DNA of 64,000 nt, the filler included. It is 9 parts of 9 records of this genome, joined end to end, with 100 filler letters (N's around TTAATTAATTAA, not from the genome) between each part and the next. Parts side by side here need not be neighbours in the genome. Positions count along the whole stretch, not along the records: positions 11,434 to 19,580 come from SRR31147125_54836; 8 more parts are not named here. The stretch is one strand, 5' to 3'. Positions 7,828 to 19,580 of this stretch are shown one piece after another. Numbering within the stretch: position 1 is the first letter of the stretch; each line of letters opens with the position of its first letter. The notes beneath the pieces are model-generated. The model was not told the DNA's origin, searched no databases, and saw nothing but the letters and a program-made list of their open reading frames with translations. Made by a program: the position numbers and the translations under genes.

Positions 7828-8754
7828 TCAGCCCCCGACAATGGCTTCCAGACCATACTCCTTAAATATCTCTACAATTCTTTTTAGCCTGTTTTCAGTT
7901 GGAGCCTCCATCATCTCTGCTTCATACTCCCATCCCAGCTTTGTATACTTGCTTTCAGCGATATCATGATAGGGAAGCAGATGAATAGCTTTTGGTTTTT
8001 GGGTAAGTGAAGCTACAAACTCTGCTGTTGCTGTTATATTCTCTTCATCGTCATTAATACCTGAAATCACAGGTATGCGAATCAAAAAGGCAGCTTTCTG
8101 TTCTGACAGAGCCTGCAGATTCTTCAATATAATACCATTATCAACACCGGTATATGTGCAATGCTTTTCCGGATCCATTATCTTCAAATCATAAAGAAAG
8201 AGATTGGTTTTTTCAGCCACTTTCAACATCAGATCGGTGGCTGCATAACCTGAAGTGTCCACAGCAGTGTGGACTCCTGTCTGGCTACAGGCTTCAAGTA
8301 ATGCCAATAGAAACTGCGGCTGCGCCAGCGGCTCTCCTCCTGAGAAGGTGACTCCACCGCCGGAATTATCACTTACAACCCGTTCCCTCTCAATTACTGC
8401 CATTACTTCACCAACACTCATCTCAGTGCCGGACAGCTCCCTTGCCTTTGGAGGACAAATCTCGACACAGTCACCGCACAACTGACAACGTTCAAGATCA
8501 GTTAATACACCCTCTGAGGTCATGCTGCAAGCTCCATACTTACAAACATGTATACATTCAAGGCAGCCTATACATTTTCCCGCAGAATACAGCATTTGTT
8601 GTCCATGATCCCGGCTTTCAGGATTATGACACCAGGAACAAGAGAGAGGACAACCTTTCATGAATATGGTAACGCGAATTCCCGGACCATCGTGGATAGC
8701 AAAACGTTTTATATCGAAAATATGATTACCGCTGATACCTACCCCCCGAATCAT
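7828..8754 (-). CDS. glycyl-radical enzyme activating enzyme (radical SAM)
   Basis: HDGPGIR, CPLSCSWCHNPES, two ferredoxin-like CxxCxxCxxxC inserts, GGEP; start overlaps the stop of the glycyl-radical enzyme. Confidence 0.95.
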   Translation of the reverse strand: MIRGVGISGNHIFDIKRFAIHDGPGIRVTIFMKGCPLSCSWCHNPESRDHGQQMLYSAGKCIGCLECIHVCKYGACSMTSEGVLTDLERCQLCGDCVEICPPKARELSGTEMSVGEVMAVIERERVVSDNSGGGVTFSGGEPLAQPQFLLALLEACSQTGVHTAVDTSGYAATDLMLKVAEKTNLFLYDLKIMDPEKHCTYTGVDNGIILKNLQALSEQKAAFLIRIPVISGINDDEENITATAEFVASLTQKPKAIHLLPYHDIAESKYTKLGWEYEAEMMEAPTENRLKRIVEIFKEYGLEAIVGG

Positions 8755-11114
8755 TAAATGGACTCATTCAGTGTCCTGCTGATAATCTCCTGCTGCAGAT
8801 CACTATTCATATCGTTGAAATAGTCACTGTACCCGGCCATACGGACCATGAGGTCTTTGTAATTTTCCGGATGTTCTTGTGCATCAAGCAACGTTGCGGT
8901 ATCAACAATGTTGAACTGGATATGGTGTCCACCCATGACAAAATAGGATCGAATGAGATAGCCAAGTTTCTCGATATCACGCTCATTTCTCAACATGCTG
9001 GGCAGAAATCGCTGATTCAGCAGTGTTCCTCCGGAAAGTGTTTGGTCAATTTTTGTCATCGACCTGATTACAGCCGAGGGACCATGGGTATCGGCACCCT
9101 GGGATGGAGAAGTACCATCCGATATGGGTAGACCAGCCAATCTTCCATTGGGAGAAGCTCCCAGCATCTTACCGAAGTATATATGGCAGGTAGTCGAGAG
9201 CATGTTCATATGATACGACTCTCCTTTGATATTTGGCTGCCCATCAATTATCCGGTACAGATCATTGTATACTCTCACAGCAATCTCATCGGCATAGTCT
9301 TCATCATTTCCGAAGAAGGGAGTTCTGCTTATAATTCGCTGCCGCAAAATCTCACCACCTGCGAAGTTGTCCGTTAGTGCAGTAAGCATCTGATCCATAC
9401 CGATCGTTTTATCCTCAAACACATGCTTTTTCATGACTACAAGGCTATCTGTTATAGTACCGAATCCAGTACACTGGATATAACTTGTGTTATAACGGGG
9501 ACCGCCGTTATAGTAATCACGGCCTTTGACAATGCAGTCATCGATAAGTACGGATAGAAATGGTGCGAGGGTATATCTGGCCGTCATACTGTCGATATAA
9601 TTGCTTACCCTCACCTTCTGGTCTACCACAAACTCCAACTGCTTCAGGAAGGCTGTATAGAGATCATCAAAACATGCAAATGTAACCGGATATCCTGTTG
9701 CCAACCCAACCTGGCGACCAGTCATCGGATCAATACCATTATTCAGCGTTATCTCCAGAACCTTGGGAACATTAAGATACCCGGTAAGCAGAAAAGCCTC
9801 CTTTCCAAAGGCTCCAACCTCAATACATCCGCTGCAGCCGCCCTCTCTGGCATCGGTAATATCCTTGCCCATCTGGACCATCTCGCTGATATATACATCG
9901 GGATTGAATACCGACGGGTAGCCATATCCCTTCTTTATAACCTGAATGGCTTTGTGCAGAAAAGTATCAGGAGTACTGCTGCTGATATGCACTGAACAGC
10001 CCGGCTGCAGGATATGCAGTTCTTCAAGAACCTCGAGCATCATGTAGGAAACTTCACCTACTCCATCCTCTCCAGAATCTGTTATGCCGCCAAGGTTGAT
10101 ATTGGTAAAATCATTATATGTACCACTCTCTTTGGCAGTTATCCCAACTTTGGGGGGAGCAACATGATTATTTACCTTGATCCAGAAACAGGAAATAAGC
10201 TCCTTTGCCATATCCCTTGTCAACTCACCATTTTCAACTCCCATTTCATAGAATGGGGTAAGGTGCTGATCAAAATGGCCTGGATTCATGGCATCCCAGC
10301 CGTTGAGTTCTGTTATTGTACCCAAATGCACAAACCAGTACATCTGAATCGCTTCCTGAAAGGTGCGAGGGGCATGTGCTGGTACCCAACGGCAAACTTC
10401 AGTAATATTTAAAAGTTCAGCCTTTCGTACCGGATCCTGCTCAGATACAGCCAACTCTTCAGCTTTATCAGCATGCCTGTTGGCAAATACAATCACAGCA
10501 TCACAAGATATACTCATGGCTTTAAGCTCTTCGGCTTTACCTGTTGCCTCAGAGTCATCTAAATAATTCAGGGATTCCAGCTCTTTCTGAATATCAGCTT
10601 TGAAATCCAGCATCCCCTTTCGATAGATTTTACCATCCAGGGCTGTATGCCCGGGAGCACGCTGCTCCATAAATTCGGTAAAGAGACCAGCCTCATATGC
10701 CCGTCTCCATGTATCCGGCACATGGGAGAATATTCTCTCCCGCTGGGTTCTTCCTTTCCAAAAAGGAATTACTTTCTTTTTATAAGTATCAATATCCTCA
10801 CTTGAAACAAGATAGCGCTGCTGCTCCCTTGAATTGAGAATCTGCAGGTCTTCAACACTATGACAAGTAAGTTCCGGGAATGTGGGTACTGCTTTTGGAG
10901 TTGGACCACGTTCACCAACTATCAGCTCATCATCACCTATGTAGATTTGCTTTCTGGTACAGTGATCGAGGAAAGATAGCGCACGCATTTCAGGTACCGA
11001 GAATTTCCCATGATTTTTCTTATAGAACTCTGTTTGATGCAGAGCCCGTTCTATACTGATTGACGGTTGGGTCTCTACACTTCGTTTCCTGAGCCTTTGG
11101 ATACGCTGGTTCAA
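8754..11114 (-). CDS. hypD: glycyl radical enzyme, trans-4-hydroxy-L-proline dehydratase
   Basis: EFMEQRAPGHT, WDA, PPKVGITAKES.TY.DF, SGCIE, LTGY, TTCHIYFG and RMAGYS match the recalled C. difficile HypD motifs; TTG start with AGGAG RBS. Confidence 0.88.
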   Translation of the reverse strand: MNQRIQRLRKRSVETQPSISIERALHQTEFYKKNHGKFSVPEMRALSFLDHCTRKQIYIGDDELIVGERGPTPKAVPTFPELTCHSVEDLQILNSREQQRYLVSSEDIDTYKKKVIPFWKGRTQRERIFSHVPDTWRRAYEAGLFTEFMEQRAPGHTALDGKIYRKGMLDFKADIQKELESLNYLDDSEATGKAEELKAMSISCDAVIVFANRHADKAEELAVSEQDPVRKAELLNITEVCRWVPAHAPRTFQEAIQMYWFVHLGTITELNGWDAMNPGHFDQHLTPFYEMGVENGELTRDMAKELISCFWIKVNNHVAPPKVGITAKESGTYNDFTNINLGGITDSGEDGVGEVSYMMLEVLEELHILQPGCSVHISSSTPDTFLHKAIQVIKKGYGYPSVFNPDVYISEMVQMGKDITDAREGGCSGCIEVGAFGKEAFLLTGYLNVPKVLEITLNNGIDPMTGRQVGLATGYPVTFACFDDLYTAFLKQLEFVVDQKVRVSNYIDSMTARYTLAPFLSVLIDDCIVKGRDYYNGGPRYNTSYIQCTGFGTITDSLVVMKKHVFEDKTIGMDQMLTALTDNFAGGEILRQRIISRTPFFGNDEDYADEIAVRVYNDLYRIIDGQPNIKGESYHMNMLSTTCHIYFGKMLGASPNGRLAGLPISDGTSPSQGADTHGPSAVIRSMTKIDQTLSGGTLLNQRFLPSMLRNERDIEKLGYLIRSYFVMGGHHIQFNIVDTATLLDAQEHPENYKDLMVRMAGYSDYFNDMNSDLQQEIISRTLNESI

Positions 11115-11433: not shown

Positions 11434-11434
11434 A

Positions 11435-12304
11435 AAATTAAATCCCGAATCAGTCAATAAACTGTTGTTTTCACCGTTGCGAAATAAAACAAGTGATGCT
11501 TTGATAAATGGTGATGTTGCTGTCTGGATCTTTCTGGAGAGCGGGCATGCTGAAAAAGATAAAATAGCCGCGCAAAGATTAAAAGACCAGATAGCTGAAA
11601 TGGAAGCAAATCCCTCTTTATTTACTTCCATTACGCCACCTGAAAAAGAGCAGGAATCCGATAACACGCCGACGCCTGCGAGCTTTTCCATTTTTCAAAT
11701 GTCAAAGTCAGATCAGGCTGAATCGTTTTTTAGATCCCTGCTTTTAAACAGTGAACCTGATTTATTGGATTATACTGATTATCCCATGGCATTTCCTGTC
11801 TATGGGCAGGGACGGGTGTTGTACGCGCTCGTTGGCGATGGGATTTCCGATTCCAATATTCGCGAAGCAAGCTCGTTCCTGAATGGGCCCTGTTCCTGTG
11901 AAATTAAAGCGTTAAACCAGGGGCAGGATTTATTAATGACAGCCGATTGGTCAAGTGCCGCTAGTTTTACAGCCCAAACAGATACCTTACCACCATTAAC
12001 AGGATTTTCGGATTTTATTACCTCAAATGATACAACTGAAAAAACAACAGTTTCACCTTCAAAGGATGTTTTACGACAACCTGCGGAAGAATCAGATAAA
12101 GCGGATGCGCAGACTGATCCTGGTTTTACCTCTGTGAATAATGATCGTCCGGAAAAGGTGGATTATTCTCCAACTGGTACAGAGACAGGTGGCATCTTAC
12201 CCAAATCCAACCTTATTCGCAATATCCTTTTAATGCTCTGTGCCGGTTTGGGATTCGTTTTTGTCTTTACGATTCTAATGAAGCGAAAGAGAAACAGTGA
12301 ATAA
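11435..12304 (+). CDS. hypothetical protein, 5'-partial, with GPCSC motif and C-terminal membrane anchor
   Basis: frame open from the contig edge; FPVYGQGR, GPCSCEIK; low-complexity linker, TM helix and KRKR tail. Confidence 0.75.
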   Translation, partial: KLNPESVNKLLFSPLRNKTSDALINGDVAVWIFLESGHAEKDKIAAQRLKDQIAEMEANPSLFTSITPPEKEQESDNTPTPASFSIFQMSKSDQAESFFRSLLLNSEPDLLDYTDYPMAFPVYGQGRVLYALVGDGISDSNIREASSFLNGPCSCEIKALNQGQDLLMTADWSSAASFTAQTDTLPPLTGFSDFITSNDTTEKTTVSPSKDVLRQPAEESDKADAQTDPGFTSVNNDRPEKVDYSPTGTETGGILPKSNLIRNILLMLCAGLGFVFVFTILMKRKRNSE

Positions 12305-12662
12305 AGAGGTTAAGGATTAAGAATACCACCACTTGTTCGTTCATTCAGAATAATCCGGGAATCCTTGTCGGTTTAATCATTTTGTTTGTTTTTTATCCAA
12401 ATTTAATGTTATTAAAAGTATATTTATATTTTATGTGTTCCAGGCCTTTCTAATTCCTTCAAAAAGCCATTCTTCATCCACCTGCAACTTGAAATCTAAC
12501 CTTGAAAAATGCTAAAAATGAAAAAAATGTTAAATATCCTGAATATTGAATTATTTTGGTAATGTAACTTACAGTTTTGCCTCCATTTGAAATAATATTC
12601 TCCTTTTTGTGGTTAACCTGCATATTTAATTAGGTGAAAAGTGTATTATCGGAGGATATCAA

Positions 12663-13331
12663 ATGACAGCATCAAATGCAAAGAATCGAGTTGATTGGGG
12701 CAGTGCTTTTATCGCAGGTATGGCAGCAACTGTTGCAATGACCGTTGTTATGGCATTAATGGGAATGAACATCATGAAATCTCTTGGTATGATGTTTCTT
12801 GGGCCTGGTTCAGGTACCATGTCTCAATATATTGTTGGCGGTCTTGTTCATTTTTCGATTGGGATTGTTTATGGTTTTATATATGCGGTTATTTTTGCTC
12901 CAATTGGATCCTGGAATCGGTTTTTAAAAGCGGGTGTTTTTGGATTTGCTATTACAGCAGCAGCAATGGCTTTTATGCCTGTGCTCGGATCCATGATGAG
13001 TGGTGGAGCGGATAACCCTTGTAATCCCTGTTATCAGGGCTCTGGTGCTCATAGTGCAACCATGAATCCTTGTAATCCCTGTGGTGACATGAAAGCAAAG
13101 ATTCCAAAAAATCCTTGTGGTGAAACAAAGGCTATGAATCCTTGTAATCCGTATGGTGATGTGAAACCGATGAATCCATGTAATCATACGAGTGCAATGA
13201 AAGCAGGCAATCCATGTAATCCCTGCGCAGGTGGTGCCAATCCTTTTGCCGGATTATTCAACCTGATTAACCATTTGATTTATGCTTTTGTATTAGCGTT
13301 TGTATATAAAGGCTCCAAATCATTAACTTGA
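12663..13331 (+). CDS. four-TM, Met-rich membrane protein with a Cys-rich NPC-repeat loop
   Basis: GGAGG RBS; hydrophobic segments at about aa 13-35, 55-79, 87-109 and 196-215; His63 and His204 in TM helices; 9 Cys, all in NPC triplets. Confidence 0.85.
   Translation: MTASNAKNRVDWGSAFIAGMAATVAMTVVMALMGMNIMKSLGMMFLGPGSGTMSQYIVGGLVHFSIGIVYGFIYAVIFAPIGSWNRFLKAGVFGFAITAAAMAFMPVLGSMMSGGADNPCNPCYQGSGAHSATMNPCNPCGDMKAKIPKNPCGETKAMNPCNPYGDVKPMNPCNHTSAMKAGNPCNPCAGGANPFAGLFNLINHLIYAFVLAFVYKGSKSLT
13014..13247 (+). repeat. intragenic NPC(NPC) peptide repeats
   Basis: recurring AATCC(T/A)TGTAATCC units encoding NPCNPC x3, NPCNPY, NPCNH, NPCG and NPF. Confidence 0.9.
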
Positions 13332-13360
13332 ATAAAAATTATTTAAACGAGGTTTAAACG

Positions 13361-14443
13361 ATGAAATTAAAATGGGGACTCGTTTTATCTGTTTTTGGAT
13401 CCATAGGCCTTTTGACTTTGGTTGCGATTTTTCTGGAGAAAAGGGAAGCCGTTGATCCATTAGGCCCTGAATATGAATGGGGTAGTAGATTAGCACATAC
13501 TGATAATTCATCTGCAGAAGAAATGGTTCTTATTCAGGCAGGTGAATATATATTAGGTGATGAAGAGACTTATCCCAATTCAAAGGATGCCCCGCCACAT
13601 CGTGTCCGTCTCGACGCCTTTTACATCGACAAACATGAAGTGACGAACCGACTCTTTTCCAGGTTTGTGACAGATACAGGATATAAAACAACAGTAGAAA
13701 AAGAGGGCGCTGCGTGGATTTATCGTGGTGGAGAAGGTGATTGGCTCTTTGTTGATGGTGCTCATTGGCAGCACCCACTTGGTCCGGGTAGTCATATTCA
13801 TGATGCTATGGATCATCCGGTGGTTTTGGTGTCCTGGTATGATGCTGTGGCGTATGCCGAGTGGGCTGGAAAACGCCTTCCGACTGAAGCGGAATGGGAA
13901 GTTGCTGCGCGGGCCGGTGTGAATCCACAATTTCCAAACGATAATCATGATAATTTAATAGTTCATAGAGCGACTGTCCAGACAAGTCATTCATCGAATA
14001 CCCTTGATACTGAATTACCGTTACATCCATCTGCCGGCTCCCATTCCGAGGAACATGTTTTTCATAAAAAAATGGCTCTTGCAGGTCATGCCAATATCTG
14101 GCAAGGACACTGGCCACGCAAAAATGAAATGGTTGACGGATTTTTCTATACTTCACCAGTAGGTTCTTTTGCTGCCAATGAGATTGGTATTTTTGATATG
14201 ATTGGAAATGTCTGGGAGTGGACGGCTGACTGGTATACCTCTAATTCATATGAAACAAAAACAGTTCATGAAAATCCTGCTGGAGCCAGCACCGGTTCGA
14301 GACGCGTTGCGCGGGGTGGATCCTGGTTTTGCTCACCTAATTATTGTAGTGCCTATCGTCCGGGATTCCGCGGAAAGAGTCCGCCTTCAAGTGCGTTTAA
14401 TAATGTTGGTTTTCGATGTGCCAGGGACGTTGAAAAAATATAA
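13361..14443 (+). CDS. formylglycine-generating enzyme (FGE/SUMF1) family protein with N-terminal signal or anchor
   Basis: HEVTN, HPVV.VSW.DA, RLPTEAEWE, DMIGNVWEW, RGGSWFCSPNYC.AYR (both catalytic Cys present), NVGFRC. Confidence 0.92.
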   Translation: MKLKWGLVLSVFGSIGLLTLVAIFLEKREAVDPLGPEYEWGSRLAHTDNSSAEEMVLIQAGEYILGDEETYPNSKDAPPHRVRLDAFYIDKHEVTNRLFSRFVTDTGYKTTVEKEGAAWIYRGGEGDWLFVDGAHWQHPLGPGSHIHDAMDHPVVLVSWYDAVAYAEWAGKRLPTEAEWEVAARAGVNPQFPNDNHDNLIVHRATVQTSHSSNTLDTELPLHPSAGSHSEEHVFHKKMALAGHANIWQGHWPRKNEMVDGFFYTSPVGSFAANEIGIFDMIGNVWEWTADWYTSNSYETKTVHENPAGASTGSRRVARGGSWFCSPNYCSAYRPGFRGKSPPSSAFNNVGFRCARDVEKI

Positions 14444-14460
14444 TTTTTCACTAACTTTAA

Positions 14461-14487
14461 GAGCCGGGTTATGGAATCCCGGCTTTT
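14461..14487 (+). terminator. intrinsic terminator after the FGE gene
   Basis: AGCCGGG/CCCGGCT stem followed by Ts. Confidence 0.7.
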
Positions 14488-14857
14488 AAAGTTAAAGTTG
14501 TGTTAAATCGGATATGGGATACAGACGATAATATATGAGTAGCAGTCATGTATTTGACTTTTATCCTCATCCTGAAAAGTGCCTGTATAGTTAAGAGGTT
14601 CTTTTATATCCTCCAGCTGAAAGTCAATTTATTTTGATGACCAGTATAAAAATATTATCCTGTTTTAGCAAAATCTTCAAAAGCTTTCTGTTTACCTGGA
14701 ACAATATTTGTCTCTGCTACGTTTTATTATTTGTAGAGATAATTATATTAAAAATCCTTCAGAGGTCCTTAATTTGAATTGAGCGTTTCAATGTAGTAAT
14801 ATAACATATTAATCCTGTTTATACCTGAACACCTTGTTCTCAGTAAGGAGGAAGACT

Positions 14858-15394
14858 ATGAGAAGTAAATGGCACACCTTACTAATTTTACCTGTAATGT
14901 TCAGCCTTTTATTTATGTTGAATTGTTCGGTTGGAACAATTTCCGTCGACGAGACCTATTCTACATTAAGACCGGTAAAACAGCTCGAGTTGCCTGAACA
15001 GGTTACGGACAATCTTGTTATTGAAATCTCAAATGTGGCTGATTTAGGTTCCAGCTATAAAAATCGGGTCGACGTTTTTGTCAATGACAAGAAGATCATA
15101 CCCAATTGGGTCCTCACAAATGTGGAGGAAACCTATATATATAAATTAAGATTAAGACCGGGCTACTATAAAGTCAAATCTCATTATTACGCTTATATAG
15201 GTTGGGGAGAGGAAAAATACATAATCGAAAGTCAGGACCTGGTAAAAGTATATGCCGATAAACGGAACTATGTAACATGTGATATTGTGAAAAAGCCAAA
15301 TGGTGAGCCTGTAAATGAAAAGATGTACTTTAAACAAAGAATAGAACCTTTGAGTTCAACCGTTCAATCGACAAAAGATTTAACAAAGTTCTAA
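14858..15394 (+). CDS. hypothetical exported protein, probable lipoprotein
   Basis: AAGGAGG RBS; signal peptide ending FMLNC; beta-rich body. Confidence 0.7.
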   Translation: MRSKWHTLLILPVMFSLLFMLNCSVGTISVDETYSTLRPVKQLELPEQVTDNLVIEISNVADLGSSYKNRVDVFVNDKKIIPNWVLTNVEETYIYKLRLRPGYYKVKSHYYAYIGWGEEKYIIESQDLVKVYADKRNYVTCDIVKKPNGEPVNEKMYFKQRIEPLSSTVQSTKDLTKF

Positions 15395-15482
15395 GATATA
15401 TGAAAATGTTTTTGTACTCGTTTGGTATTACTGTTTATATTTGATAAAATGTTCATCTCTTCTGTTGTTCCTTCTCCTTGCT

Positions 15483-15514
15483 AAAAGGGTCTCTCTATAG
15501 AGGCCCTTTTTTTT
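15483..15514. terminator. bidirectional-type intrinsic terminator
   Basis: AAAAGGG..CTCT/AGAG..CCCTTTTTTTT. Confidence 0.7.
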
Positions 15515-15604
15515 AATAAAATCCTTGTAAAGATGAAACTTTATTTCTATTGTTGTCAATAGTGAAATTAAACTGCTTTTTATATATAAGCAAAGGACAT
15601 ATCT

Positions 15605-16896
15605 ATGAATGAGACGAAAATTTTAGCTGGCTTTACGGCAATACATGCGAAAATTCGGGCGCGTTTTCCTCAACTTGAAAAAGTCGGGATGGAGGGACAC
15701 GTATCTATCTTAACAATGGGGCTGGCACGCAAATGGTTGATACCGCAATTAAAATGCTGGCAGAAACAGCTCAAACCGCTAATCCGCAGCCCGGCACTAT
15801 GGATCCGGATGAAAAAGCGACAGATGAGTTACATTGGAAGGTGCGAAATAAAGTCGCTCAATTCATCAATGCCGGGAAAGCAGAAGAGATCAGTTTTCAC
15901 TTTTCGACAACTCATGCCCTGTTTAATCTCGCCTATGCGTGCCGATCTTTGTTTACAAAGAAAAATAATGTTGTGGTGACAGACCTTGATCATATGGCCA
16001 ACATTTCACCCTGGGAAGATTTTTGCGGCTTTGAGAACGGTTGTGAAATCCGTCGTGCCAGGATAACGGCTAATGGTATGCTGGATGAGGACCATCTGCT
16101 ATCACTTGTTAATGGAAAAACCGCTCTGGTGGCTTTGACCATGGCTTCCAATGGTTTTGGCACCATCGTGCCTGTTAAAGAAATTGTAACAAAGATTAAA
16201 GAGAAGAATAGAGATTGTCTCGTCTGTGTTGATGCCGTACATCATGCACTGCATGGTTTAATCGATGTGCAGGATATGGGTTGTGATTTTCTCGCTTTTT
16301 CAGGTTATAAAGTATTTGGACCAATGCTGGGTGTTTTATGGGCAAGGGAAACGGTGGCACAAAAGCTCCAACCATATCGGGTTGAGACTAATAAAAATAT
16401 CCCACCTTTTCATTTTGAACAGGGAACTCTCAATAACGCTTTGCTGGCCGCTTTGAATGCCGCTTTAGACTATATTCTCTGGCTGGCAGATGAAATATCC
16501 CTGCAAGTTGGCAACATGATCAATCCGAACAGGCAGAAATTTGTTTTTGCCATGAATGCCATTGCAATTCATGAGGCACAACTGAATGAAAAGATATTGT
16601 ATGGTTTTCCTCAGTTCAATAGTGATAAATTTGTCTGCTATGGCATTACGGATCCAGCCCTTTCCTTGCAGCGTGATCCCACATTTGCATTTGAAATAAA
16701 GGGACTATCACCACAGGACATCAAAAAACATCTCTGGGATGGCTTTCGAATAGAGATTGCTTACGGTAATCATTATTCAGCAGCTATATATCGACATCTT
16801 GGCAGAGACAGCCTCTGCCGTGCCAGTTTCGCTCATTATGATTCAATGGAAACAGCAGAATTATTTGTCCGGGCTCTCAGGTCCATATCAGGATGA
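15605..16896 (+). CDS. class-V PLP enzyme, cysteine-desulfurase-like (apparent frameshift in A-run 15678-15682)
   Basis: IRARFPQL then IYLNNGAGTQ in a shifted frame; DHMAN, VDAVH, FSGYK(PLP)VFGP, RASFAHY. Confidence 0.85.
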
Positions 16897-17454
16897 TTTT
16901 TGTTTCAATACAAATACAGTTGTGTATCAATTAGTGTCATATGTGAAATTTAATTACATAAATGTAAAACAGCCCATCATAAATGCATTTTGAATTGACT
17001 GATTTTATTTAGTCTTGATTTTTATATTTGTTTATAACCGTAGTAAAAACAATGTACTGCTAGTCGAATCGACATGTGGATATAAATTGTTTTTCCAATT
17101 CTACTTTTGGCATTTAATTTGTAGCAATTTTAGCATAGTGGCTCTCTCCAGTGAAATAAATATGGGACTGTACCCGATTTGGGATGTGTTGGGTGGTATC
17201 ATGTGTCAGGGTAAAGTTTGGTACAGTCCCTGTATATAAAATATTATCTCTTTTCTTCCTCTCTCTGTCAATTAACCTGCTTCATTCATCTGTTTTTCCT
17301 TGTTAAATTCATGTAATTTTATTATGTTTCATCCTGATATTCTTCAATTATTTTGGTGGGATGCGGAAAATACCTTCCGTTATAAACTGATATGGCGTGA
17401 TTATTTCGAGAAATTAATTTTGGGATTTATGTACAATAGAAACGGAGTATCAAC

Positions 17455-18717
17455 ATGAAAGAAACATCAATTAATAAAGTTGTCCTTGCCTATTCTGGAG
17501 GCCTGGATACATCCATTATCATTCCATGGTTAAAGGAAAATTATGGATGTGAAGTCATTGCTTTTGCAGCAGATCTCGGGCAGGAACAGGAACTGGATGG
17601 GCTGGAAGAAAAGGCTATTGCTACCGGAGCAAGCAAGTGTTACATTGAAGACTTACGAAAACCCTTTGTTGAGGAGTATATCTGGCCTACGTTAAAAGCA
17701 GGTGCTATATATGAAGACAGGTATTTGCTGGGAACTTCTTTCGCTCGTCCTTTAATTGCCAAAAGGCAAGTTGAAATTGCCGCCGCTGAAGGTGCTGATG
17801 CGGTTGCCCATGGATGTACAGGTAAAGGAAATGACCAGGTGCGATTTGAATTGACCTTCAAGGCATTTAATCCGAAACTTCATGTCATTGCACCATGGAG
17901 GGAGTGGGATATCCGATCCAGAGAAGATGCCATTGCCTATGCAAATGAGAGAAAAATCCCCATTACAGCCAGCAAGGAAAAAATTTATAGTAATGATCGA
18001 AATATCTGGCATATCAGTCACGAGGGAGGCGACCTTGAGGATCCATGGAATGAGCCTCAGAGTAAAATGTTTGCCATGTCCAAATCGCCTGAAGAAGCTC
18101 CGGATAAAGCTGAATTTGTTGAAATTGAATTTGAAAGAGGCATTCCTGTTGCGGTTAATGGTGTTAGAATGGAAGCTGTCCCTTTGCTGCAGTTATTGAA
18201 TAAAATGGCTGGTGATAATGGAGTGGGTAGGGTTGATCTCGTCGAAAACCGCCTTGTGGGTATGAAATCAAGAGGTGTGTATGAGACGCCAGGTGGTACG
18301 TTGCTGTATTCAGCTCATGCTGAACTGGAAAGTCTTATACTGGATCGTGAAACATTACATTTTAAAGAGATGCTGGCCCCTAAATATGCAGAGCTTGTCT
18401 ATTACGGTGCCTGGTTTACACCGCTTCGGGAAGCCCTCGATGCCTTTGTTGAAGAAACTCAAAAGTATGTCACCGGTACAGTTAGATTGAAATTATATAA
18501 AGGAAACTGTATTGTCGCTGGAAGAAAATCACCCTATTCATTATATCGTGAAGAGTTGGCGACATTTGGCGAGGAAGATATTTACGATCAAAAAGATGCA
18601 AAAGGTTTTATTAATCTTTATGGTTTACCCTTAAAGGTAAGGGCACTTGTGGAAATGGAATGGGGTAAACACCCGCATTACAAAGAACCTGATTACAGTA
18701 AATTCAAACGGGATTAA
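17455..18717 (+). CDS. argG: argininosuccinate synthase
   Basis: [44 protein letters not shown]. Confidence 0.98.
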
Positions 18718-18719
18718 CA

Positions 18720-19580
18720 GTGAGCGAAAACGATAAAAAAATTTGGGGTGGACGTTTTACCAAAGAAACCGAATCCGTAATGGTACGGTATAGTTACTCC
18801 ATCGATTTTGATAAAAATCTTTTCGATGCGGATATTCAGGTAAACAAAGCATGGGCACAAGCTCTCGCCAAAGTTGGTGTCTACAATCCGGACGAAGTGG
18901 AGAAAGTTTTAAATGCCCTTGATCTTATTCAACAGGATTTTAAAGCCAATAAACTGGAATTTTCAAATACCGATGAGGACATTCATTCTGCCAATGAGCG
19001 ATGGTTGACTGAACGTCTTGGGGAACTGGGTGCCCGGATTCATACAGGTAGAAGCCGAAATGATCAGGTTGTTACTGATTTTCGTGTATTTTTAAGAAAT
19101 GAAATTTCAGAATTGTGCCTGGCTATAGGGTCCTTACAAAAGGCCATTATTGAGTTGGCGGAAAAACATATCGAAACGGTCTTTTCCGGATTCACACATC
19201 TAAGGCAGGCTCAGCCTGTTTCATTTGCACATTATTTATTGGCGCTCTTTTTTCAAATGCAGCGTGACTATGAGCGACTCGAACAAGCTTACTCGCGCTG
19301 TAATAAGATGCCGCTTGGTTCCGGGGCTTTGGCCGGTGCGGCTTTTCCAATTGATCGGGAAGAACTGGCTAAAACGCTTGGCTTTGATGAACCCACGGAA
19401 AATAGCATTGATGCCACTTCAGATCGTGATTTTGTTATCGAGTTGGCTTTTATCTGTTCGCAAATTATGCTGCATATGAGCCGAATAGCTGAGGATTTTA
19501 TCATCTATTCTTCTGAAGGATTCCGCTTCATTGAGATTGATCAGGCTTATTCTACAGGCAGCAGCATGATGCCGCAAAAA
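18720..19580 (+). CDS. argH: argininosuccinate lyase, 3'-partial
   Basis: WGGRF, EDIH, HTGRSRNDQV, HLRQAQP, STGSSMMPQK. Confidence 0.97.

Follow-up and report, generated by a model that had tools for sequence, protein, structure and literature searches.

An NPC-repeat membrane protein paired with a copper-type formylglycine-generating enzyme: a candidate periplasmic cysteine-modification module

Canonical Cu(I) formylglycine-generating enzymes (FGEs), such as human SUMF1 and the enzymes of T. curvata and S. coelicolor, act on the CxPxR motif of type I sulfatases; to our knowledge, FGEs act only on sulfatases and their close relatives. They recognise the cysteine together with the proline at +2 and need copper and an external reductant. 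Here we describe a pair of genes found in a stretch of DNA of 64,000 nucleotides, filler included (hereafter the window), in which a membrane protein with repeated Asn-Pro-Cys (NPC) units (gene 1, 12663..13331, + strand) is followed by a membrane-anchored FGE of the copper type (gene 2, 13361..14443, + strand). We tentatively favour, at somewhat less than an even chance, the reading that NPC repeats are the substrate of a dedicated periplasmic FGE, so that the two genes would form a Cys-modification module. The pairing could reveal either a new class of FGE substrate or a protein dedicated to supplying the enzyme with copper or electrons.

Among published concepts the closest, judging from an excerpt of PMC12452194, is that of bufferins and other MNIO-modified proteins. 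These are likewise exported or membrane-tethered, and an oxidative enzyme encoded next to them is believed to modify their periplasmic cysteines. The same excerpt describes sigma/anti-sigma genes, MerC and MerC fusions in bufferin clusters, treats membrane proteins with periplasmic Cys-rich segments as putative precursors and reports a few Buf1–Cytochrom_C–FGE-sulfatase fusion proteins. As described there, however, the bufferin systems rely on an MNIO (DUF692) with a partner protein and on precursors of the DUF2282 type or with EGKCG repeats, whereas the present locus has an FGE and NPC units. No MNIO (DUF692), DUF2282 or EGKCG precursor was seen among the selected neighbour open reading frames (ORFs) scanned, a scan that was not exhaustive. 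Gene 1 additionally shares the CxxC spacing with a nearby Met (MNPCNPC) of the MxCxxC metallochaperones (CopZ/Atx1/MerP), and an HMA protein and MerC adjoin the pair in one related locus (L009). In contrast to these chaperones, gene 1 has no HMA fold and no match to PF00403 (HMA), and its repeats are predicted to be disordered and are multiplied 4 to 22 times among relatives. The first-pass annotation of the window knew of no described system with this pairing, and our literature searches agree with it. They gave no description of NPC repeats paired with an FGE and nothing on NPC repeats, on the function of DUF6789 or DUF6969 or on a non-sulfatase FGE client; papers mentioning Asn-Pro-Cys dealt mostly with aquaporin-11.

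The two-gene unit

Gene coordinates, lengths and the 29-nt spacing had been given correctly in the first pass. Gene 1 encodes a 222-aa protein, predicted to reside in the inner membrane, in which a four-helix scaffold bears the NPC-repeat loop. The transmembrane (TM) core resembles DUF6789 (PF20587), a family of uncharacterised four-helix membrane proteins, with a score of 25.7 bits that is just under the gathering cut-off of 27.1. Several relatives pass this cut-off, precomputed PF20587 matches cover 33 of 120 tabulated relatives (124 sequence relatives were found overall) and the protein-atlas neighbours of gene 1 are DUF6789 clusters. By sequence, gene 1 is best considered a divergent DUF6789 relative and not a scored member. 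The AlphaFold2 model, computed with 99 relatives, reached a predicted local distance difference test (pLDDT) score of 75.7 and contains four long helices, with helical segments at residues 12-32, 37-46 (short), 52-77, 86-113 and 196-214. Comparison of this model with the PDB by Foldseek gave nothing at E <= 0.001, and the best hit of a wide VIA fold search (Z 7.0) is under the level that is meaningful for helical bundles. The count of 19 Met was confirmed, and His occurs at positions 63, 130, 175 and 204. H63 and H204, which had been described as intramembrane, do fall within predicted helices; the former is invariant and the latter nearly invariant among the 99 aligned relatives. Met abounds in the scaffold core, where TM2 and TM4 also bear conserved His, and is especially frequent in short relatives.

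All nine Cys of gene 1 lie in NPC units, as the first reading had it, and all within the 82-aa loop between TM3 and TM4 (residues 114-195; 13002..13247, + strand). Tandem NPCNPC occurs three times in it (residues 118-123, 135-140 and 183-188), along with Met and His. This loop, which sets gene 1 apart from nine plain relatives that lack it, has a pLDDT below 50 and is predicted to be disordered. Cys after Asn-Pro accounts for 1017 of 1090 cases in 108 family members, far above chance, and the loops of relatives hold variable numbers of Cys. In gene 1 the highest densities of basic residues are found in the C-terminal tail (1.8 in 6 residues) and the loop joining TM2 to TM3 (1.2 in 8), which would place the NPC loop outside; in other proteins, NPC repeats come after signal peptides. 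Judged from this distribution of charges and signal peptides, the loop and the catalytic domain of the FGE most likely share the periplasm, in line with the compartment first proposed.

Gene 2 starts after a 29-nt spacer (13332..13360, + strand) with a GAGG ribosome-binding site and encodes 360 aa. A predicted N-terminal signal-anchor (residues 1-25; 13361..13435, + strand, from hydropathy and alignment) is followed by the clade-conserved E26 position. The protein matches PF03781 over the full length of the profile (E 7.1e-77, positions 2-255 of 255) and human FGE at E 2e-61, and its closest solved relatives are true FGEs. The active-site stretch GGSWFCSPNYCSAYR (14315..14359, + strand) carries Ser321, Cys324, Cys329 and, where canonical FGEs have Arg, Ala331. 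The catalytic motif is thus intact, as had been claimed: C324 and C329 align with the copper-binding Cys pair of human FGE, and the pair is invariant in 14 aligned partner FGEs. A His-rich insert (residues 193-242, about 45-50 aa; 13937..14086, + strand), recognised as a gap against human FGE in the PDB alignment, is missing from human FGE and from most partner FGEs; among the 14 aligned it is full-length only in the window and in L001, and short in L007. This insert might be an extra metal-binding segment. The FGE partners in two other genomes, G117 and G055, have strongly basic N-termini ahead of the anchor.

The unit is closed by a 17-bp terminator-like hairpin (14452..14494, + strand). A simple terminator scan did not list it, and folding bore out the terminator proposed in the first pass (-25.9 kcal/mol, z -6.8, with none of 200 shuffles as good). 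A complex prediction of whole gene 1 with the whole FGE, made with neither alignments nor metal, scored 0.00 and says nothing either way.

Conservation of the pair and spread of the repeat

The linkage is conserved, with an FGE directly downstream on the same strand in 17 of 18 distinct NPC-scaffold loci (the window, L001-L015, G112 and L152, duplicates removed). A scan limited to one genome per species gave 15 loci, which belong to Thermoanaerobaculia, Pyrinomonadaceae, other Acidobacteriota, Opitutia and one gammaproteobacterium. In 14 of these 15 loci the scaffold gene is succeeded, at a distance of -4 to +24 nt and in the same orientation, by an FGE homologue of 42-57% identity, and start and stop codons overlap in 6 of the 14; G112 and L152 show the same arrangement. 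By comparison, no FGE-family ORF was found in flanks of about 0.9-1.9 kb around nine scaffold/DUF6789 relatives without the Cys loop, six of which came out of a set of 151 genomes representing the class and the other three out of 401 representing the phylum. The pair itself is the only conserved element across loci, and every other neighbour varies.

Some apparent fusions were discarded. Long fused ORFs in GC-rich loci were open shadow frames, and a search for scaffold-FGE fusions among longer proteins gave a single match, an NPC-P460-LysM protein. Two other loci (L205 and L208, in G440:C5 and G416:C66) have a DUF6789-like membrane domain at the N-terminus of 555-582-aa ORFs, whose long extra-membrane C-terminal part, judged by eye, resembles molybdopterin oxidoreductase.

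In five pair-bearing genomes the NPCNPC-coding pattern is confined to the scaffold gene. Other genomes carry the repeat on other proteins. A pattern scan of 401 Acidobacteriota genomes, in which a backwards control pattern matched 4 genomes, identified real NPC-repeat genes in 8, of which 6 adjoin an FGE of the window type. These six cases comprise three scaffolds and one each of P460, YHS and YceI-type carriers; the remaining matches were due to chance, many of them single NPCNPC patterns in short or wrong-frame ORFs. For example, genome G055 encodes an anchored protein that combines four QNPCNPCAKK units with a cytochrome-P460 domain, followed by the FGE and by an AhpC/TSA-type redoxin that overlaps the FGE stop. 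Similarly, in G117 (a single 3.59-Mb contig) a protein with a signal peptide, NPC units and a YHS domain precedes the FGE. In G350 the order is reversed, the FGE being followed by a signal peptide and NPC units of the YceI-NPC type, where the contig ends. Past the redoxin, the G055 locus (L060:1283-6462) encodes a Rieske protein, a fused cytochrome b/c and a cytochrome c, and the whole, with the NPC-P460 gene and its FGE, looks like one respiratory-type operon.

A second pattern scan covered metagenomes and yielded 80 loci among at least 120 matching stretches; 79 of them hold an ORF with at least 4 NPC units. Pfam assigned 19 of 84 metagenome NPC ORFs to P460, 6 to SoxA/TsdA cytochrome c, 1 to YceI and 1 to DUF6789, and the other 57, many of them cut by contig ends, had no Pfam match at E 1e-5. 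Of the 79 loci, 12 have an FGE-family ORF next to the repeat gene; among the 22 that offer at least 1 kb on each side, 7 do. Nine genomes of 1.8-7.6 Mb that were searched for FGE-family matches contain between 1 and 12 each, from which we estimate that chance adjacency would be of the order of 1%. Only one of the 12 adjacent enzymes is of the window type. The other 11 fall in a separate, distant FGE-family clade (support 100/99), 10 of them with the motif KGGSWDD[KR]GCG[VI]CRPAARH, and their loci often include a DUF6969 gene and a YedE-like transporter. Overall, the FGE link follows the repeat and not the scaffold.

The distant clade occurs in a second type of cluster (L111:3807-9016; also L085, L094, L109, L127 and L151), which combines an NPC-P460 protein, a small NPC-only ORF and the distant FGE-family enzyme. 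Seven loci add a DUF6969 protein, four a YedE/Sulf_transp membrane protein and four an unassigned ORF of about 170 aa.

The sequence following the NPC cysteine is looser than the part preceding it. The cysteine is followed by N, A, G or H at +1, by Pro at +2 for 45% of the cysteines and by Cys or Lys at +3, and Arg is outside the six commonest residues at +4. The first-pass remark that these units resemble CxP lacking the Arg is therefore borne out in part: the resemblance is real and limited to the 45% with Pro at +2. Taken by sequence, the NPC repeat would thus fit C-x-P partially and CxPxR not at all. More distant relatives of the scaffold no longer have the N-P and retain loops with Cys-Pro. 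In 12 of them, all without NPC, C-x-P accounts for 53 of 93 loop Cys (shuffles gave 11.0 +/- 3.0, with a maximum of 21 in 2000), and Pro at -1 is also enriched (34 cases). As both C-x-P and Pro at -1 are enriched in these relatives, the core common to all the loops appears to be P-C-x-P, which contains the Cys and the +2 Pro used in FGE recognition. One scaffold relative (P0149) repeats C-K-P-H-P-R-R four times in its TM3-TM4 loop, which comes nearer to the sulfatase CxPxR than NPC does.

The linked enzyme and its possible client

All 16 compared NPC-linked FGEs keep the Cys pair ([GA]SWFCSxxYC). The pair is absent from 19 other FGE-family genes of four of these genomes, one of which shows a shifted variant. 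In the phylogenetic tree the scaffold-linked FGEs, gene 2 included, form one clade (100/97) with the YHS-linked FGE as sister, and the linked FGEs group with two canonical FGEs at a support of 100/98. These two, from G055 and G346, have the canonical RWW, long loop and YCSR, and that of G055 adjoins a sulfatase with LCSPSRA (CSPSR). The linked clade departs from this pattern by a D at the position of the first Trp, a loop shorter by 15-16 residues and Ala in place of Arg. In gene 2, D127 replaces the first Trp of WW, Ser321 is kept and the Arg position is occupied by Ala331, which is nearly invariant in the clade.

The grouping with canonical FGEs and the retained catalytic residues are what one would expect of an ordinary sulfatase-maturing periplasmic FGE whose membrane neighbour is unrelated and travels along by descent in a few lineages, and most scaffold loci do come from one phylum, Acidobacteriota. 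Yet the pair is also present in Opitutia (L012) and in the window's organism, which has 40% GC; the gene order stayed fixed while the proteins diverged to 40-57% identity; the controls without the Cys loop have no FGE; and G117 has no recognisable Cys-type sulfatase. Inheritance by chance also fits poorly because the same link recurs on four carriers and in two enzyme clades. We consider this explanation very improbable.

The changes in the linked clade fall in the substrate groove. According to an excerpt of PMC6676471 on the T. curvata enzyme (tcFGE), Phe86 and Trp109 provide the packing surface for the substrate Pro(+2), Trp84 stacks with Arg(+4) and a downstream Ile of the sulfatase sits in a pocket formed by Trp84, Phe86, Met99 and Ala101; Arg276 touches the substrate Cys thiolate and counts, with Ser266, as a second-sphere residue. 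These residues were mapped onto gene 2 indirectly, through the human alignment. On this excerpt-based mapping, gene 2 keeps the Pro-contact residues (Y121 and W128) and an aromatic residue at the Arg-stacking position (W119, Phe in human FGE), and the linked clade lacks the part of the groove that holds the downstream helix of the sulfatase (the region of tcFGE Met99/Ala101). Gene 2 therefore shares with canonical FGEs the fold and family (PF03781), the Cys pair and Ser of GGS-x-x-C-x4-C and, as far as the excerpt allows mapping, the contacts to the substrate Pro. It differs in its membrane anchor and predicted orientation towards the periplasm, in the shortened groove loop, D127 and Ala331, and in having as its constant neighbour an NPC-repeat protein instead of a sulfatase; the candidate sites in gene 1, for their part, have a fixed N-P before the Cys and no Arg at +4.

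The hosts were then compared for their sulfatases. The earlier statement that no sulfatase lies on the contig of the pair is true, and it is weak evidence because the contig is only 8 kb long; a tblastn search with one Cys-type sulfatase as query also gave no match in the whole window. The complete genome G117 has one weak PF00884 match (28.7 bits) lacking C/SxPxR, and no recognisable Cys-type sulfatase. In G001 the partner is the only FGE-family match and the single PF00884 match is without the motif. In G004, 4 of 5 PF00884 matches were inspected and no [CS][TSAC]P[SA]R was found in a sulfatase-strand ORF.

These observations bear on the possibility that the NPC loop serves the FGE, either as a tethered Cu(I) metallochaperone or as a two-electron donor via CNPC dithiols, with exported sulfatases or another protein as the real substrates. 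CNPC is a CxxC unit, and MNPCNPC presumably resembles the MxCxxC motifs that bind Cu(I). The Met-rich core with its conserved His in TM2 and TM4, the very Met-rich short relatives and the YHS carrier, a putative metal-binding domain, would suit such a role, as would the thiol-redox genes nearby (the redoxin in G055, and DUF255 thioredoxin-like proteins in L006, L007 and L009) and the dependence of FGE on an external reductant. So would the finding that in G002 and G003, which have CxPSR sulfatases, no Cys-pair FGE other than the linked one was seen. On the other hand, 4 to 22 Cys per loop in variable copy number go far beyond what a chaperone needs. A Cys-type sulfatase target for the enzyme is missing in G117 and G001, G055 has a separate canonical FGE beside its sulfatase, and the linked clade has, on the tcFGE excerpt, lost the groove loop for the downstream helix of sulfatases. 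Moreover, NPC repeats are linked as well to a second FGE-family clade, whose Cys are arranged differently. We regard a donor or chaperone role, the main rival, as unlikely. The first-pass annotation had left substrate and copper or electron donor side by side; the comparative evidence leans to the substrate, and the label of a copper system has found indirect support.

A number of findings weigh against the loop being the substrate of its FGE. The invariant part of the repeat is the N-P before the Cys, which no known FGE motif requires, whereas C-x-P is found for less than half of the NPC cysteines and Arg at +4 ranks below the six commonest residues. The scaffold itself is Met/His-rich, which fits copper handling. 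An FGE is missing from one scaffold locus of the 15 (L008) and from 15 of the 22 metagenome NPC loci that extend at least 1 kb to each side of the gene. Around the YceI-NPC gene of G336 there is none in 12 kb, and neither G336 nor G012, which also has a YceI-NPC gene, contains a close FGE homologue genome-wide at E 1e-20. In G002 and G003, CxPSR sulfatases are present and the linked FGE is the only Cys-pair FGE seen; as the sole such enzyme beside Cys-type sulfatases, it may serve them there. Finally, metagenome-assembled genomes are incomplete, so that missing sulfatases are weak evidence except in G117.

Should the NPC loop nonetheless be the substrate, the module could work as follows. Gene 1 would sit in the inner membrane with both ends cytoplasmic and its 82-aa (N)P-C-x-P / NPC loop in the periplasm. 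Gene 2, probably co-transcribed with gene 1 and translationally coupled to it in relatives, would be a signal-anchored paralogue of the Cu(I) FGE with its catalytic domain in the compartment of the loop, whose cysteines would be its dedicated client. A loop Cys could bind as third thiolate to Cu(I) held by C324/C329 and be oxidised with O2, most likely to formylglycine, and the product would be a loop that mixes aldehydes, thiols, Met and His. The same logic of tag and enzyme might apply to NPC repeats on exported P460, YHS and YceI carriers. An FGE subclade tied to Cys-Pro repeats would represent a known enzyme family with an apparently new client class. It would account for a common low-complexity module, so far unannotated, that recurs on many redox proteins of the periplasm, and a natural multi-site aldehyde tag could interest protein engineers.

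A broader version of this idea, which we rate as unlikely, holds that NPC/P-C-x-P repeats are a widespread unrecognised periplasmic modification tag, carried by cytochrome P460, SoxA/TsdA-type haem proteins, YceI, YHS and the Met/His-rich membrane scaffold and processed by at least two independent FGE-family lineages, with the Cu-type making formylglycine. If true, the tags could be natural poly-aldehyde arms that capture nucleophiles (hydroxylamine at P460, sulfite or thiols at SoxA/TsdA) or provide a new metal-binding site, and would be the first natural FGE substrates beyond the sulfatase / alkaline-phosphatase superfamily.

Neighbouring genes and the setting of the window

Genes near the pair in related loci hint at soft-metal or thiol stress, and none is constant. 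One cluster of ECF sigma factors is represented in 8 related loci, with Pfam confirmation in the 6 scanned, and MerA/glutathione-reductase-like flavoproteins are found in 5, none of them at the equivalog cut-off. ArsM-like methyltransferases occur in L001, L006 and L009, which last has the MerC and HMA protein beside the pair, and a CsoR-like repressor in L007. The window's own contig has none of the ECF sigma, MerA-like, ArsM-like, DUF255, MerC/HMA or CsoR-like neighbours.

Such a neighbourhood would be in keeping with a co-regulated envelope response to soft metals, metalloids or thiol stress in which the two proteins make no contact, the thiols of the loop buffering Cu(I), Hg(II), As(III) or selenium species in the periplasm while the FGE matures another exported protein. 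The frequent occurrence of NPC-repeat genes without any FGE agrees with this. However, only the pair is conserved across loci while the other neighbours vary, and start and stop codons overlap in the six loci noted above. Mere co-regulation also fits poorly because the link to FGE recurs on four unrelated carriers and in two FGE-family clades. We judge it quite improbable as an account of the pair; a role in soft-metal or thiol stress might still apply to the modification module that we favour.

Short contigs strung together by paired 44-N runs (window 5346-58776) make up the window, and the pair sits on one piece only, 11434-19580, of about 8 kb. The GC of the pieces ranges from 0.36 to 0.61, and they may derive from more than one organism. 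A neighbouring piece encodes a glycyl-radical enzyme (8754-11114, - strand) that scores over the cut-off for trans-4-hydroxy-L-proline dehydratase (1151 bits vs 1100). If it belongs to the same organism as the pair, this enzyme implies an anaerobic lifestyle, whereas FGE needs O2. On the piece with the pair, a cysteine-desulfurase-like aminotransferase of the VC1184 type (15733-16896, + strand; 253.7 bits, below the cut-off of 352) lies 1.3 kb 3' of the pair and is not kept beside it elsewhere; argG and then argH come after it.

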